The notes under the pieces: model-generated
Seen by the model: the letters and a program-made list of their open reading frames with translations, nothing else
What the model was told of the DNA's origin: nothing
Database searches by the model: none
Shown here: piece after piece, positions 26,625 to 58,387 of the stretch
Layout of the letters: every line of letters begins with the position of its first letter
Position numbering within the stretch: position 1 is the stretch's first letter
Source of the DNA: Candidatus Omnitrophota bacterium
GTDB lineage: Bacteria; Omnitrophota; Gorgyraeia; Aquiviventales; Aquiviventaceae
NCBI GenBank assembly: GCA_016180575.1
Contig: JACPAY010000006.1
Location: 10,165-74,164, forward strand
Reading direction: 5' to 3'
DNA length: 64,000 nucleotides
Made by a program: the position numbers and the translations under genes

Positions 26625-27504
26625 GGCCGCGGGTGGTACTTCTCGTGCACCGCCTTGAGCCGCGAGCGGTCCACATGGGTGTAGCGCTGCGTGGTGCTGA
26701 TGTTGGCGTGGCCCAGCAGCTCTTGGACGATCCGCAGATCGGCGCCCCGCTCCAGCAGGTGCGTCGCGAAGGAATGGCGCAGCGTGTGGGGACTGATGCC
26801 GTTTCCCAGCAGGCCCGACGCGGCGTACCGGCGCAACACCTGCCAGACCCGCTGGCGGGTCAGCCGCCCGCCCCGGCGGCTGACGAACAAGGCCGGCGTC
26901 TCCGACCGGCCGGCCATCAGCCGCGGGCGCTCCGTCTGCAGGTACCGGCTCATCGCGGCCGCCGCCTGGCGGCCGAGGGGCATGATGCGCTCCTTGTTCC
27001 CCTTCCCGATGCACCGGAGGAAGCCCGCCTCGAAGTTGCAATGGCCAAGGTCCAGCGACACCAGCTCCGAGACGCGCAGGCCGGCGCCGTAGAGCAGCTC
27101 GAGCATGGCCAGGTCGCGCAGCCCGAGCCCCTCGGCCTTGACGCTGCGCAGCAGCCGCTCCACCTCCTCGACGTTGAGCGTCCTCGGCAGGCGGCGCCAG
27201 AGCCGCGGCGTCTCGATGAACGCCGTCGGGCTGCGGAGGACCACCCGCTGGCCCTCGAGGAACCGGAACAGCCCCTTCACTGCCGCCAGCTTCCGGGCCA
27301 CCGTCGCGGGGCTGCGCCTCTCGCGCAGCGATTGGAGGAACTCCCGCACGTGCAGCGGCCGCACGCGCGCAAGGCCCCCGATGCGCCTCGCCTTGAGAAA
27401 CGCCTCGAAGAGCCCCAGGTCCTGGCGGTAGCTGGCTCTCGTCGTCGGGCTGAGGCCGCGCTCCAGCTCCAGGTAGGTCAGGAACCCGTCAATCTGCTCG
27501 CGCA

Positions 27505-42713: not shown

Positions 42714-43541
42714 TCAATTGCCATTTTCCCTCCAGGTTAACGCCCCCTTCACTAATTTCTCCAAACTCCAGATATGGTCAGTTATACCAGCCGCCATTGC
42801 CGGTGTCATCTTCAACGTACGGTGTACCCTGCACAGGTTGTAGTGACCGAAATGCAAGGCTAAAGCAGCTACCAAGTTCTCGGATTTCTTGCTGAACGCA
42901 TTGGTTTTACGGGCAATCCGTCTGACGCTCATCCGCATCGTGAGGTTGTTGCGCTCCACATACGAGGTTGAAATCTTGTCGAGCTTCGGATAACCAGCCA
43001 CCACGCTAGGCCGCGCCCCGATACACTCATCCCCTGAGTAAATTTTCACTAACTGCCCGAAGTGTACCTCTGTCCCGAATGCGACCTCAGCCGCGTCCAC
43101 ATAGGCAGGGAAGCCGTCGGTCGAAAGCTGAAACTCCCCCACGATGCGCTTGCGGAGATCGCTCATCAGCCGCAAGGCGGTGTAGCCGTTGCGGTGGCCG
43201 GTCGTGTGGCTGATGACTAGCTTGCTCTCAGCATCGAGGGCGACAAAGACCCACACCTCTCCGCTGTAGCCGTTCATCACCAAGCCGTGATACTCAGGGT
43301 TGTTTTTCTTTCCTATGAACGTGCAAAGCTCGTCTGCTTGGACATAGTTGACCTTCAAACCCTTGATCTGTTCGTCCAACATCTTCTGTGCTGCCTGACC
43401 TGCCCGAACGTGCCAGCGCATGATCGTATCACGGTGAACGCCTGTAATGCGCTCTAGGGAGCGAATGGACTGGCCTTCAACGAGACCATTCAGCAAGATT
43501 AAGATTTTCTCTTTACTCAGCACATTCATATGAGAACACAT
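42714..43541 (-). CDS. IS1-superfamily DDE transposase
   Basis: 275 aa. N-terminal HTH (SIRSLERITGVHRDTIMRW) and DDE-region landmarks (ADELCTF, STDGFPAY, SYVERNNLTMRM...KTNAFSK). The likely start is the ATG at 43529. Confidence 0.85.
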   Translation of the reverse strand: MCSHMNVLSKEKILILLNGLVEGQSIRSLERITGVHRDTIMRWHVRAGQAAQKMLDEQIKGLKVNYVQADELCTFIGKKNNPEYHGLVMNGYSGEVWVFVALDAESKLVISHTTGHRNGYTALRLMSDLRKRIVGEFQLSTDGFPAYVDAAEVAFGTEVHFGQLVKIYSGDECIGARPSVVAGYPKLDKISTSYVERNNLTMRMSVRRIARKTNAFSKKSENLVAALALHFGHYNLCRVHRTLKMTPAMAAGITDHIWSLEKLVKGALTWRENGN

Positions 43542-43558
43542 ATGTTCATTTAATAGGC

Positions 43559-43584
43559 AAAAAAATATCCCTCAGCGCTGAGGG
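43559..43584 (-). terminator. intrinsic terminator after the HTH gene
   Basis: 16-nt perfect palindrome CCCTCAGCGCTGAGGG (43569-43584, includes the stop codon), followed on the coding strand by AUAUUUUUUU. Confidence 0.6.
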
Positions 43585-43760
43585 AGAATGCCCTTTGATT
43601 GAAGTATGACTTGGTACGCCCTAGAAACCTTGGTCTTGCCTGTCAGCCACCGATTAACCGTCTGGACAGGTGCACCAATCTCGGCGGCAAACTCGTATTG
43701 CTTCTTGTCGTGACGAGCGAGGTAGACGTTGATCTGGCGAATAAGTTCCTTGTCGCCCAT
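43572..43760 (-). CDS. Cro/XRE-type helix-turn-helix protein
   Basis: 62 aa (KKQYEFAAEIGAPVQTVNRWLTGKTKVS). Confidence 0.8.
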   Translation of the reverse strand: MGDKELIRQINVYLARHDKKQYEFAAEIGAPVQTVNRWLTGKTKVSRAYQVILQSKGILPQR

Positions 43761-43806
43761 TGCGATACGATACTATCATATGTGTTCTCATGTGTCGATA
43801 TCAATT

Positions 43807-44136
43807 TTATTCAAATGCATCGACAATTTGAACTGGCAATGTAATTGGTTTGACGTTCTCTGGCGCTGGTGGCGGCGCAATAGTATCTACCTTTGGTTTT
43901 GTTGGTCGAGTGATCGGCTCAAGAGAAAGTCTATTTCTGATGATATAGTGTATATTTTTTTCTTTTTCGGGTGTGAAAAGTATTCCTCGAAATCTACCTT
44001 GCAAATCCCAAACAAGCTCTCCTTCAATCCAACCAAGATGATCGCCGTCTCTAGAAAACAAAAGTCCCTCTTTGAAGAACCCAAGGTAATTTCCGTTCGT
44101 CTTATAAACATGCTTTATGGTTATAGTGACAGTCAT
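43807..44136 (-). CDS. small beta-rich hypothetical protein
   Basis: 109 aa with Gly-hydrophobic beta-hairpin-like repeats (NGNYLGFFKEGLLFSRDGDHLGWIEGELVWDLQGRFRGILF) and a Pro-rich tail. ATGA overlap with the protease gene stop. Confidence 0.5.
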   Translation of the reverse strand: MTVTITIKHVYKTNGNYLGFFKEGLLFSRDGDHLGWIEGELVWDLQGRFRGILFTPEKEKNIHYIIRNRLSLEPITRPTKPKVDTIAPPPAPENVKPITLPVQIVDAFE

Positions 44137-44810
44137 GGGGTAATTATTTTATGATCAGGAATATAGTTAGCAGGTACAGCATAACCCATACCTAGATTAA
44201 CGTTACTCACTAGAGCCTTATATATTTCAACTATATCGATACCATGTAAGGACAATGCCCCTACGCTCATATTTTCAATTGCTTCCAACAACCGGTTATG
44301 TTGCCTTCTCTTCAGGTTAACAACTCCCAAAACTTTCCCTTCTGTGTCCATTAAAGGACAACCGCTATTGCCAGAGTTAACTGTTCCATCGATAGCATAA
44401 GTAGTTATGCCAGCCGCATCTTTAATTATTGCAGAAATGATTCCTTGATGGGTTGTAAGGTGCTCGGAACTAAATGGATAACCTGAAAAAATTACACGCA
44501 GCCCCTCGGTAACTGGATTGATAAGACTAATTGGTAGAGGATTTCGTGTGGAGTCATCAAACTTTAGAAGCGCTAGATCGTGTTCCTCGTCCTTTATAAT
44601 AACTTTGCTTGTAATCGCGGCATTTGTGTCAGGAAATTTTATAGCAACAGCGCTGGCATCTTTTACGACGTGATTACAGGTTACCAAAATATTCTTGGTT
44701 CCAAAAACGAACCCGCTTCCAGTGCTGAAGAGTTTTTGGGCAGGGTCGAGTACGGCAAGAACAAGAGCAATGCTCGGCTTGACCTGCTTGATAACGGGGG
44801 AGTGATCCAT
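44133..44810 (-). CDS. cytoplasmic trypsin-fold (S1/Trypsin_2-like) serine protease
   Basis: Start at internal ATG 44810 (MDHSPVIKQVK...). Triad contexts TCNHVV / EHDLALLKF / GNSGCPL. No signal peptide. The upstream ORF-track residues cross the TIR and GC repeat and were rejected. Confidence 0.8.
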   Translation of the reverse strand: MDHSPVIKQVKPSIALVLAVLDPAQKLFSTGSGFVFGTKNILVTCNHVVKDASAVAIKFPDTNAAITSKVIIKDEEHDLALLKFDDSTRNPLPISLINPVTEGLRVIFSGYPFSSEHLTTHQGIISAIIKDAAGITTYAIDGTVNSGNSGCPLMDTEGKVLGVVNLKRRQHNRLLEAIENMSVGALSLHGIDIVEIYKALVSNVNLGMGYAVPANYIPDHKIITP

Positions 44811-44910
44811 CGGGATGAGGTGATAATATAGCACTAGGAAGCATGAAAGGTAAGCGAATTTTGAGCTTCGGTTGGATTGCCAAATTAGGACACTACCGGC
44901 CGGGGGGTGC

Positions 44911-45028
44911 TGTCTCAATTTGGCGGGTCCTGCCGCGCCGCCACCCCGTCGGCTGTCCTCCCCCGCCATGGCGGGGTGCGGGCAGGCGACGGGGTCCCCG
45001 GCTCTGCGTCACCCGCCAAATTGAGACA
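44911..45028. repeat. GC-rich long-hairpin repeat, copy 2 (complete, perfect 18-bp TIRs)
   Basis: TGTCTCAATTTGGCGGGT ... ACCCGCCAAATTGAGACA enclose the conserved arms and a CCCCGCC-AT-GGCGGGG apex. Ends 13 nt from the smc stop. Confidence 0.9.
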
Positions 45029-56854: not shown

Positions 56855-57271
56855 CTAGTCGAGCCACTCGTTGAGCCACACCGCGTCCACCGTCAGCGAG
56901 GTGCCGCGCGCCTGGTCCCGCGCGACGGTCAGCGACACGTCGCTGGCGAGCGGGGCGCCGGCCTCATCCGTCAGGTCCGCGCGCAATACCGCCTCGAGGG
57001 TCCAGCGGTAGTCCTCGTGCGGCGGGTCAAACGTCCCGGCGCGATCCGTGGGGAGCGGGCGGCCGGCGAGCAATTCGGCCTCCAGCTCGAGCAGCTTCCC
57101 CTGCGCCAAGGCGAGGAGCGCCTCATGCGCTTCCACCGCCCGGATCGCGCCGAGCTGGCTGGCGAACCCGCGGCTGATGAAGGCGAGGCCCACCGCGATG
57201 ACGACGGCGGCGAGCGTCGCCTCAACGAGCAGCAGGCCCTGGCACGAGCCCCACGTGGCCGGTCGTCTCAT
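56855..57271 (-). CDS. gspI: type II secretion minor pseudopilin GspI-like
   Basis: 138 aa with a prepilin N-terminus (QGLLLVEATLAAVVIAVGLAFI). Confidence 0.7.
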   Translation of the reverse strand: MRRPATWGSCQGLLLVEATLAAVVIAVGLAFISRGFASQLGAIRAVEAHEALLALAQGKLLELEAELLAGRPLPTDRAGTFDPPHEDYRWTLEAVLRADLTDEAGAPLASDVSLTVARDQARGTSLTVDAVWLNEWLD

Positions 57272-57710
57272 CCACTGTCGCGGTCATGGCATGCGCCTGG
57301 AAGCTCACCGTGAGCGTCGCCGGCTCGCTCGTCCCTTCGGGGAAGAAGCGCACGCAGCTGCACTCGACCGGCGCATCGTCGAGCAAGAGCTGGACGGAGA
57401 AGTCCTCCGGCAGCGCACTACTCCGAAACAGCTCCGTGGCGGGCGCGGTCTCCTCGGGAACCTCCTCGACGCGGGCGCGGCGCGCAGCGGCATCCCAGAC
57501 CCAGACCGTCTCCCCGCCGCTTGCCACCGCCTGCTCATGGGCCGCGCGCAGCAGCTGGGCCAGCTCGGAAGCGGCCTGCTCCACGCGCAGCCGGAGCGCC
57601 GTCTGCTGCAGCCTCGGGGCGGCGGCCGCCACGAGGATGATGAGCACCACCGCGACCAGCGCAAGCTCGATGAGGGTGAACCCGGGCCGGCTCAGAGTTG
57701 GCTTCAACAC
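57222..57710 (-). CDS. gspH: type II secretion minor pseudopilin GspH-like
   Basis: GTG at 57710 gives a canonical leader, (M)LKPTLSRPG|FTLIELALVAVV. The ORF-track start at 57971 crosses the structured spacer and was rejected. Confidence 0.6.
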   Translation of the reverse strand: MLKPTLSRPGFTLIELALVAVVLIILVAAAAPRLQQTALRLRVEQAASELAQLLRAAHEQAVASGGETVWVWDAAARRARVEEVPEETAPATELFRSSALPEDFSVQLLLDDAPVECSCVRFFPEGTSEPATLTVSFQAHAMTATVDETTGHVGLVPGPAAR

Positions 57711-57975
57711 CTCGCGCGAGCCGCGTTGCGTGCGCCACGGGCCAGGGCCAAGGAACGACGACGAAGGCGTATCAGGAACCGCGATACGTCGAGGAGGAGT
57801 GACGCCGGCCCTGGCCCCGTGCCGCCGCAACCCGAAGGGCTGGGCGAACTGGCGTCGCCGTGCATCGTTGCTCGTCGTCGCCGTATCGCTCCCTGCTGAT
57901 ACGGCTTCCTCCTCGCGCCTCGCGCGGCTCGCCATTGCGCCCAGCGCGGCCGCGGGAGGTGTTGAAGCCAACTCT
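57694..57975 (-). other. 282-nt rod-like imperfect palindrome closed by a perfect 20-bp stem (gspG-gspH intercistronic)
   Basis: AGAGTTGGCTTCAACACCTC (57694-57713) is the exact reverse complement of 57956-57975. The interior shows further arm-to-arm complementarity, e.g. CGTATCAG/CTGATACG. Confidence 0.85.
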
Positions 57976-58387
57976 AATCCCAGTTGGTCACGTCGTCCTT
58001 CCCCGCCTGCCCGTCGGAGCCCAGCGAGAAGAGATCGTAGTCCTGGTTGTGCTGCGAGGCTTTCTTATACTCGTAGGGGCGGCCCCAGGGATCCTTCGGC
58101 AGCCCCCGCTTCAGGTACGGGCCGTTCCACTTCGCCCGCGCCTCATCGCTGAGGTGCGACGGCGCCTCGCGGGCGGTCAGCGCCTCCAGGGAATCGGGGT
58201 ACTGGCCGGCGTCCAGCTCGTAGAGGTCGAGCGCCACGCCGATCGAGGCGATGTCCGACTTCGCGCGGGCGATCTTCGCCTGCTCGGTCCGGCCGGCGAG
58301 GCGCGGGACCACCATCGCCGCCAGCACGCCGATGATGACGACCACCAGCATCAACTCGACCAGCGTGAACCCCCGCTTCTGCGTCAT
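57974..58387 (-). CDS. gspG: type II secretion major pseudopilin GspG
   Basis: ATG at 58387 overlaps the gspF stop (ATGA). MTQKRG|FTLVELMLVVVIIGVLAAMVVPRL...DPWGRPYEY. 137 aa. Confidence 0.9.
   Translation of the reverse strand: MTQKRGFTLVELMLVVVIIGVLAAMVVPRLAGRTEQAKIARAKSDIASIGVALDLYELDAGQYPDSLEALTAREAPSHLSDEARAKWNGPYLKRGLPKDPWGRPYEYKKASQHNQDYDLFSLGSDGQAGKDDVTNWD

Follow-up and report, generated by a model that had tools for sequence, protein, structure and literature searches.

The window, i.e. the whole stretch of 64,000 nucleotides analysed here, carries a set of T2SS genes, all located on the minus strand. gspE, gspF, the major pseudopilin gene gspG and the minor pseudopilin gene gspH are followed downstream by gspI, gspJ and gspK, then by a pilM/N-like gspL and then by a gspM-like gene. 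A secretin gene is also present. MBI2104561.1 is a protein of the source Candidatus Omnitrophica/Omnitrophota MAG. The spacer between gspG and gspH lies within a 282-bp palindromic element, and the gspH reading frame is open across the whole element, back to UUG 57971 (ORF 57222-57971). The features are listed in Table 1, together with the other copies of the element described below.

Table 1. Features of the gspG-gspH region of the window and copies of the element on other contigs
Feature	Sequence	Positions	Strand	Remarks
gspE	window	61157-59655	-
gspF	window	59601-58384	-
gspG, major pseudopilin, 137 aa	window	57974-58387	-	Pfam T2SSG 4.6e-29 and N_methyl
gspG TAG stop	window	57976-57974	-
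gspG-gspH spacer, 263 nt	window		-
Complete element copy, 282 bp, GC 0.69	window	57694-57975	-	AGAG start, CTCT end; nhmmer and consensus pairing
5' terminal arm (mRNA sense) AGAGUUGGCUUCAACACCUC	window	57956-57975	-	Begins with the AG of the gspG UAG
In-frame UUG inside the 5' arm	window	57971-57969	-	2 nt past the gspG stop
Outer-helix inner extension, 5' side	window	57946-57954	-	Pairs with 57715-57724; RNAalifold columns 23-31 with 266-275
Arm A, long imperfect hairpin	window	57839-57945	-	Tip CCGTATC...GATACGG; consensus helices 2-6
Arm B, long imperfect hairpin	window	57725-57831	-	Tip CGTATC...GATACG; consensus helices 7-10
Outer-helix inner extension, 3' side	window	57715-57724	-
3' terminal arm GAGGUGUUGAAGCCAACUCU	window	57694-57713	-	Encodes VLKPT of the gspH leader
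Candidate gspH start GUG (GTG) in the 3' arm	window	57710-57708	-
Candidate gspH start UUG in the 3' arm	window	57707-57705	-
gspH, minor pseudopilin, 162 aa if the start is GTG 57710	window	57222-57710	-	Pfam GspH 1.1e-5
Secretin gene	window	51290-49473
Second copy	L013	1002-1288		69% identical; arms differ yet still complementary
Copy	L096	3011-3288		Inside secretin CDS, signal-peptide region
Copy	L099	1277-1565		Between pstB and phoU
Copy	L100	356-643		Adjoins thiS
Nested copies	L101
Copy	L102	600-877		Runs into ORF
Copy	L103	4067-4350		NCBI assembly

The 20-mer AGAGTTGGCTTCAACACCTC is found at exactly two sites in the window, 57694-57713 (+) and 57956-57975 (-). No further site was detected in the window even with three mismatches, and 100 dinucleotide shuffles gave none at the same tolerance. 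The original prediction described a perfect 20-bp stem reaching from the gspG stop codon to the gspH start codon. The pairing of 57956-57975 with 57694-57713 confirms this stem, and the arms together with the inner extension form a 29-bp helix of about -58 kcal/mol; the inverted repeat reaches 30 nt at 90%. The complement was said to lie about 240 nt downstream and to hold the GUG of the gspH leader. The distance between the arms on the mRNA is indeed 242 nt, and the GUG-UUG of the second arm reads (M)LKPTLSRPG/FTLIEL, where the slash denotes the cleavage site. Folding of the region, which had been proposed as a check, shows that the 301-nt RNA is very stable (-185.8 kcal/mol, z = -8.8).

According to nhmmer searches using profiles made from other copies, the element in the window scores 245-252 bits in the minus orientation versus 55-57 bits in the reverse orientation, and no second copy was found by these profiles within the 64-kb window. 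In the window copy, 92 of the 94 consensus pairs are Watson-Crick pairs. Four of five Logan assemblies break within the element, as might occur if the palindrome were an artefact of assembly or amplification such as a chimeric hairpin. Contig breaks at this place are expected, however, because the element is a multicopy repeat. Over 7 kb that include the whole element, the window is matched at 100% identity by L001, an independent Logan contig, which indicates that its sequence is not an assembly artefact. The NCBI MAG contig likewise spans the element identically, and related copies occur in JGI, ENA and NCBI assemblies of other samples. The probability of an artefact is considered to be negligible.

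GspH has 65 detectable homologues, all of which possess the conserved G/FTLIEL after variable leaders with called lengths of 5-36 residues. The gspG-gspH junctions were compared among the closest relatives, in which GspH is 76-82% identical. The C-terminus of GspG (...DVTNWD-stop) is the same in the window and in the relatives L007, L009 and L010. In L009 the gspH GTG is located 8 nt past the gspG TGA, and in L010 the gspH TTG overlaps gspG by 10 nt (AATTGGGACTAG). The distance from the gspG stop to the G/F cleavage site is about 60 nt in L007 and L008, and the gap between the two genes is 62 nt in the P0002 contig. The element was not found at the gspG-gspH junctions of L007/L008, L009, L010 and the P0002 contig, i.e. 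no orthologous conservation as a T2SS intergenic structure is seen at the junctions of the closest relatives.

The element of about 280 bp recurs at unrelated loci in other metagenome contigs. In a metagenome scan, the identical 20-mer was detected beside unrelated genes in L011, L012 and L013, and each of these contigs ends within the element. Further copies lie beside ordinary housekeeping genes (Table 1). The neighbour of a copy in L013 is a low-molecular-weight phosphatase gene. The L102 copy does not keep the frame of its host ORF and cuts it short. The hosts of the family are the Candidatus Omnitrophota MAG and other groundwater metagenome genomes. In total, the element was counted at no fewer than 10 loci and in at least 15 further protein clusters. 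Since the stem is missing at the junctions of the relatives and copies are present at unrelated loci, the structure is not a feature of the T2SS operon. The organism of L011 is related to that of the window: at the DNA level, the xerD-like gene of L011 and window positions 26676-27481 share 74% identity. In L011 the element abuts the ATG of this gene, whereas the window is without the element there. The gspG-gspH junction and the xerD-like gene thus show that presence and absence of the element differ between relatives at two independent loci. A multicopy repeat with such presence/absence differences behaves as a MITE does.

The protein clusters were found using the translation of the element as a probe, because gene callers read through the element, as in P0001. 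The first ~105 residues of the L096 secretin (P0066) correspond to a translated element copy. A single-frame protein query gave one match, and the six-frame translation of three copies recovered P0066 only; the exhaustive search of representative proteins gave 15 further clusters, all with the same translated motifs. In GTDB representative genomes the 20-mer gave only one chance match, in a Bacteroidales MAG with a GC content of 0.39. Two scans of viral contigs with conserved 17-18-mers gave 82 loci, all of which are chance GC-rich matches, and nhmmer detected no element in them. No match was obtained by distant blastn in the plasmid collection. In the case of Rfam 15, nothing but noise was obtained for the window region at E<=10, and seven other copy-bearing loci gave no match at the gathering score.

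Eight full copies were aligned in order to describe the family. All aligned copies begin with AGAG and finish with CTCT, their lengths are 277-289 bp, and their GC contents are 0.63-0.70 versus 0.47-0.68 for the hosts. The pairwise identities are only 64-85%, and thus no recent burst is documented. The terminal arm is AGAGTTGGCTTCAACACCTC in the window copy, AGAGTTGGTTTCAAAACCTC in L100 (both arms changed, 20/20), AGAGCTGGTTTCAAAACCTC in L096 and AGAACCGGTTTCATAAATCC in L013-1, and the two arms of L103 are AGAGTGCCTAACATCA and TGATGTTAGGCACTCT. Sequence conservation is lower in the arms (66.6%) than in the core (73.8%), yet the arms are complementary at 18-20 of 20 positions in six of seven complete copies and at 20 of 20 in the window. 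Such variable yet complementary arm sequences are unusual for a TIR bound by a transposase. The best-conserved part of the family is the base of the arm B stem (GGTTGCGGCGGC / GCGCACGCAAC).

The consensus fold by RNAalifold consists of an outer stem of 29 pairs and two arms of ~107 nt, with 93% of the cells paired. Double changes were observed in 37 of the 94 pairs versus 18.9 +/- 2.6 in shuffles, none of 500 shuffles reaching the observed number, and the slid-partner controls gave 3-11 double-change pairs. In the outer stem, 16 of 29 pairs are compensated. The tip stem of arm A covaries (GTATC/GATAC, GTAGT/ACTAC, GTACTCG/CGAGTAC), and so does the tip of arm B (CGTATC/GATACG, CGTACC/GGTACG, CGTACT/AGTACG). 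The interior of the element and its reverse complement share 68% identity, in agreement with the palindromic interior described originally; the long rod proposed for it did not hold, as the two arms are better supported by covariation. In the single-rod fold, 80% of the cells are paired and 12 of 72 pairs are compensated, and the fold breaks down exactly at the variable hairpin positions. The rod is at best an alternative conformation of conserved self-complementary segments. Across the pairs there are 20 G·U cells and 17 A·C cells. This equality indicates that neither strand folds better than the other, as in a palindrome at the DNA level and not in an RNA of one strand. The retained pairing could also mean a function at each locus.

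These results bear on the proposal that the structure is an evolved cis-regulatory RNA, acting as an attenuator, a processing site or an exonuclease barrier and setting the ratio of major to minor pseudopilins. The very stable fold and the location exactly between the two pseudopilin genes are consistent with it, eight of ten copies are co-oriented with their neighbouring genes, and long MITE stems are RNase III substrates in Neisseria (PMC10969869). Nevertheless, the structure is missing at the corresponding junction of relatives with the same gene order, copies stand at unrelated loci, including within a CDS and antisense to neighbours, and G·U shows no excess over A·C. Neither a promoter-like nor an intrinsic-terminator-like site is predicted in the region, and Rfam gave no match. 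We therefore regard an evolved ratio device as very unlikely; such an effect is plausible only as a side effect of the element.

The ancestral gspG-gspH junction was reconstructed from relatives 76-82% identical in GspH rather than from a true empty allele. The window minus the element reads GGGATTGAGCCGG, to be compared with GGGACTGAGCCGA of L007. The 282-nt deletion leaves ...AACTGGGATT joined to GAGCCGGCCCGGGTTCACC, which is a few substitutions from ...AATTGGGACTGAGCCGACCGG of L007. From this comparison, the ancestral junction would have been ...AAC TGG GAT TGA GCC GGC CCG GGT TC.... The ancestral gspH TTG would have overlapped the gspG TGA (ATTGA) in a 4-nt stop/start overlap of the classical kind, with a short leader (A TTG AGC CGG CCC GGG TTC, giving MSRPG/FTLIEL). 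L010 likewise has a gspG/gspH overlap comparable to the reconstructed junction.

The 282-nt unit presumably entered between TT and GA. The T of the flank and the AG of the element would then have formed the new gspG TAG, and with the stop remade in this way GspG is unchanged. The former TTG start would have become TTA and been lost. The distal arm would have brought GTG TTG AAG CCA ACT (VLKPT), in frame with CTG AGC CGG CCC GGG TTC, and VLKPT in fact stands ahead of the ancestral LSRPG/F. The insertion corresponds to 3 x 94 nt and is free of stops in the frame of gspH. In thiS (L100) and in the phosphatase gene (L013), the TAG stop is also composed of a flank T and the AG of the element.

The copy in L096 is placed after codon 4 of the secretin gene, and it is 279 nt long, in frame and stop-free. 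Removal of the 279 nt gives MSYKLRAALIALLLVTQGFPLTVSA and brings back a textbook signal peptide; downstream of the element the secretin has no start codon. Both in-frame copies, those of the window and of L096, sit in N-terminal leaders that are cleaved off, where in-frame insertions are expected to survive. The open frames of the element are a by-product of its high GC content and differ between copies; in the L099 copy two of three sense frames are open. Because open frames are common in a GC-rich element, the in-frame and leader pattern is suggestive only.

The clean gene junctions left by exact removal (282 nt in the window, 279 nt in L096), the extensive covariation in all helices, including the helix joining both ends, and the lack of a start codon past the element in the L096 secretin would all suit a structured RNA, for example a non-coding RNA that is mobile or an intervening sequence that is cut out of the transcript, its ends being juxtaposed by the outer helix. 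Five observations speak against such an RNA. G·U equals A·C, with no strand preference. Of ten copies, two run antisense to the neighbouring genes. The intragenic and junctional copies are in frame and stop-free, which would be needless if they were excised. No similarity to an Rfam ribozyme or intron was found, and the L102 copy truncates its host ORF. A structured RNA is accordingly judged extremely doubtful, and the DNA-level palindromic repeat remains the preferred reading.

For the repeat inserted at this junction, two routes to gspH can be proposed. In the first, gspH translation would initiate at the GTG/TTG of the distal arm. In the second, ribosomes would reinitiate at the UUG 2 nt past the gspG stop and read through the stop-free element; the product would be a pre-GspH with a leader of ~97 residues ending at the normal G/F and cut by prepilin peptidase. 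By either route, gspH would be gated by a very stable structure that is opened only by ribosomes arriving from gspG. We infer that this gating is a by-product of the insertion and not an evolved regulator. The 29-bp helix may possibly be cleaved by RNase III, as in Correia elements.

The original prediction also considered translational coupling at a distance, in which termination of gspG translation would open the stem and make the gspH GUG accessible. For mRNA free of ribosomes, the predicted pairing probability of the GUG/UUG start is >0.999, and P(unpaired) is ~0.000-0.001. In order to calculate the coupling, a ribosome footprint was fixed on the gspG stop and its reach past the stop was varied. 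P(unpaired) of the GUG is 0.001 at a reach of +12 nt, 0.18 at +15 nt and 0.45 at +18 nt. The exposure is incomplete, and just upstream of the GUG a stretch of 15 nt remains mostly paired in every footprint case (0.09-0.13). Thus, coupling at a distance is physically possible but weak. The ancestral arrangement, exemplified by L010 and by the reconstructed window junction, was itself coupled via an overlapping stop and start, which is in favour of coupling as a selected trait. On the other hand, the geometry is generic to every copy of the element whatever its neighbours, and it is not kept in the T2SS relatives. Moreover, the in-frame UUG 2 nt past the stop, with its open frame through the element, offers an alternative without distant melting. 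On the same two grounds as for the ratio device, namely that relatives sharing the gene order do not conserve the stem and that an RNA-strand signature is lacking, selected coupling is unlikely, and it is plausible only as a physical side effect.

The preferred reading, an inserted mobile repeat, was also examined at the target sites. No consistent target-site duplication was found across the copies (0-2 nt). The reconstructable sites imply a duplication of 0-1 nt in the window and 1-2 nt in L096, and the flanks differ in the remaining copies. The zero-duplication model of 282 nt gives the ancestral junction closest to L007. Models with a TA or a TNA (3-bp) duplication fit some copies and fail for others, and an AGCT-target model fits some copies but breaks the L096 secretin frame. 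When each end is read inward, a T precedes AGAG at 10 of 17 junctions. Among the genes neighbouring the copies, no transposase or other autonomous partner was found, and no related autonomous IS sharing the TIRs was detected in the 64-kb window or near the other copies. The IS1-like transposase at 42714-43541 was rejected as a partner, because its inverted repeats show no relation to those of the element and because it belongs to a distinct island of low GC content.

The fold of the element is probably needed for mobilisation as single-stranded or cruciform DNA, with the enzyme supplied in trans. A further reading is a structure-dependent mobile element of a new type, in which the three-way fold would be read by an ssDNA or RNA-guided enzyme, or an intervening sequence removed from the transcript. 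Either way, the element would prefer gene boundaries and cleavable N-terminal leaders in operons, rewiring stops and starts, as at the TAG stops of gspG, thiS and the phosphatase gene. The features behind this reading are the AGAG/CTCT ends, the co-varying arms without a fixed TIR sequence and the lack of target duplication. We consider this further reading very unlikely.

Dispersed, absent from the gspG-gspH junction of close relatives and bounded by common AGAG...CTCT ends around a compensated fold, the element at 57694-57975 is interpreted, with a probability of about 0.85, as a young, nearly perfect copy of an apparently undescribed non-autonomous palindromic family of ~280 bp, MITE/REP-like in kind, of which the 20-bp stem represents the terminal arms. 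This supports the third suggestion of the original prediction, namely a MITE that has come to encode part of the gspH leader with one of its ends. The locus provides an example of a palindrome entering the 4-nt stop/start overlap of coupled genes with both genes still usable, as the ends of the element would remake the upstream stop and offer a new downstream start. It also advises caution in genome scanning, since a striking long-range stem between genes can mark a repeat and not a regulator. The family appears to be undescribed, being GC-rich and ~280 bp long, with co-varying arms and no target duplication. It could be useful in dealing with MAG assembly problems, as contigs break within it, and in the search for the mobilising enzyme.

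Precedents are available for MITEs in operons, for in-frame insertions and for RNase III cleavage at TIRs (PMC10969869). The TIR hairpins of Correia/NEMIS, the RPEs, Chunjie and ERIC are reviewed together (PMC10969869). As in MITEs in general, the size of the present element is below 500 bp without its own coding capacity, and terminal inverted repeats are present; the target-site duplication of MITEs was not found. Correia elements (NEMIS/CREE) of Neisseria are long-TIR palindromes located in operons, and the TIR hairpin in the mRNA affects the flanking genes via RNase III (PMC10969869). Like the present element, they are short palindromic repeats that are not autonomous and that have long TIRs. 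Their length is, however, 100-155 bp and their sequence AT-rich, whereas this element is ~280 bp and GC-rich. In Correia elements the TIR sequence is conserved and TA is duplicated. In the present family, by contrast, the arm sequence varies, no consistent duplication is seen and the fold has an outer stem and two arms. No sequence similarity to Correia elements was found.

Rickettsia palindromic elements (RPE) are inserted in frame in protein genes and are tolerated as an extra peptide (PMC10969869). Likewise, the L096 copy shares the reading frame of the secretin gene and the window copy that of gspH. With a length of ~100-150 bp, RPEs are AT-rich, restricted to Rickettsia and in many cases intragenic, whereas most copies of this element are intergenic and the two in-frame cases are in cleaved N-terminal leaders. 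As far as the description in the review goes, Chunjie of Geobacter uraniireducens is a MITE within a pst operon (PMC10969869), comparable to the L099 copy in a pst operon and the window copy in the gsp operon. By that description, to which the comparison is confined, Chunjie differs from this element in having both conserved TIRs and direct repeats (target duplications), and nothing points to a relationship in sequence between the two. The ERIC/IRU sequences of enterobacteria are imperfect palindromes that are transcribed in operons and alter mRNA stability (PMC10969869). They differ in being ~127 bp, in belonging to another lineage and in having no sequence similarity to this element.

In REP/REPIN-RAYT systems (Y1 HUH) and in the PATEs derived from IS200/IS605, the hairpin structure is conserved rather than the TIR sequence. 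A short conserved motif is present at the foot of the hairpin, target sites are not duplicated, and the units are structurally equivalent as DNA. With its co-varying arms and lack of duplications, the present element is closer in spirit to these systems. Unlike it, REPs have a length of 20-40 bp and REPINs one of about 70-110 bp, and their motif is of the GTAG type; the unit described here is ~280 bp with AGAG/CTCT ends, and short paired hairpins with a GTAG-like motif, as in REPINs, were not observed. No RAYT or TnpA gene was found near the copies on the short contigs and in the 64-kb window. Having the size, termini and dispersal of a MITE, with neither target duplication nor a known autonomous partner, the element is therefore filed as a new family of a known kind.

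The ends of the palindromic element can complete the stop codon of the gene upstream. This applies to thiS, gspG and the gene of a low-molecular-weight phosphotyrosine phosphatase, which are unrelated to one another: in each, one flanking T and the terminal AG of an element copy form a TAG stop (see the table below). The base before AGAG is T at 10 of 17 junctions.

An element copy is also located inside a gene. In contig L096 (3001-4998; also in L097 and L098), it follows codon 4 of the secretin gene in another T2SS/T4P-like operon. The copy is 279 nt long, in-frame and stop-free, and the stretch from the end of the element to the signal peptide's hydrophobic core contains no ATG, GTG or TTG. 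If the gene is not dead, its product would carry 93 inserted residues in the n-region of the signal peptide.

At the gspG-gspH junctions of close relatives, the element is absent. In the relative L009, the gspH GTG lies 8 nt after the gspG TGA. The counterpart of this GTG in the relatives L007 and L008 is out of frame by one base, and reaches TAA. In L007 1860-1925 (L008 is identical), gspH has no in-frame ATG, GTG or TTG upstream of the prepilin cleavage site G|FTLIEL, and the sole candidate start, a CTG, overlaps the TGA of gspG.

Four of the contigs with other copies (L013, L096, L099 and L100; five copies) come from one groundwater data set (JGI 3300027835 / ENA ERZ978390, PRJEB22302). The GC content is 0.58-0.59 in all four, and they may be parts of a single genome. 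If so, the copies of this genome are mutually just 69-85% identical, and the pairing is still good.

A cluster of partial or nested copies is present in contig L101 (285-1014). A second partial copy splits the outer one (about 285-843), and an additional partial copy lies in reverse orientation at 881-1014. The short-read contigs L002-L005, further assemblies of the window locus, stop at window positions 57707, 57866, 57939 and 57947, all within the element, and contigs L011, L012 and L013 (copy 2) likewise stop within it. Because contigs repeatedly end inside the element, we suggest that the repeat or its hairpin fragments the MAG assemblies of element-bearing organisms.

A low-GC island is located at window 42714-44969. 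Its GC content is 0.47, dropping to 0.42 at 43500-44150, compared with 0.68 for the window. The island looks like a distinct insertion of recent acquisition, with no relation to the palindromic element.

Coordinates of the stop codons formed at element ends and of the features in the low-GC island
Feature	Location	Coordinates	Strand	Match
TAG stop, thiS	L100	642-644		
TAG stop, phosphatase	L013	1287-1289		
TAG stop, gspG	window	57974-57976		
IS1-like DDE transposase ORF	low-GC island	42714-43541	minus	PF03400, E = 3e-10
Small ORF, 62 aa	low-GC island	43572-43760		
Trypsin-like peptidase	low-GC island	44133-44969		
18-nt inverted repeat CATATGAGAACACATATG	low-GC island	43527-43544 / 43777-43794		

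The inner ends of the window arms, CACCUC (57956-57961) and GAGGUG (57708-57713), are mutually paired. The former resembles an anti-Shine-Dalgarno sequence and the latter a Shine-Dalgarno sequence, a likeness that may be a coincidence. In contig L011, perhaps likewise by chance, the ATG of a xerD-like gene directly adjoins the CTCT end of the element, 14 nt past GAGGTG.
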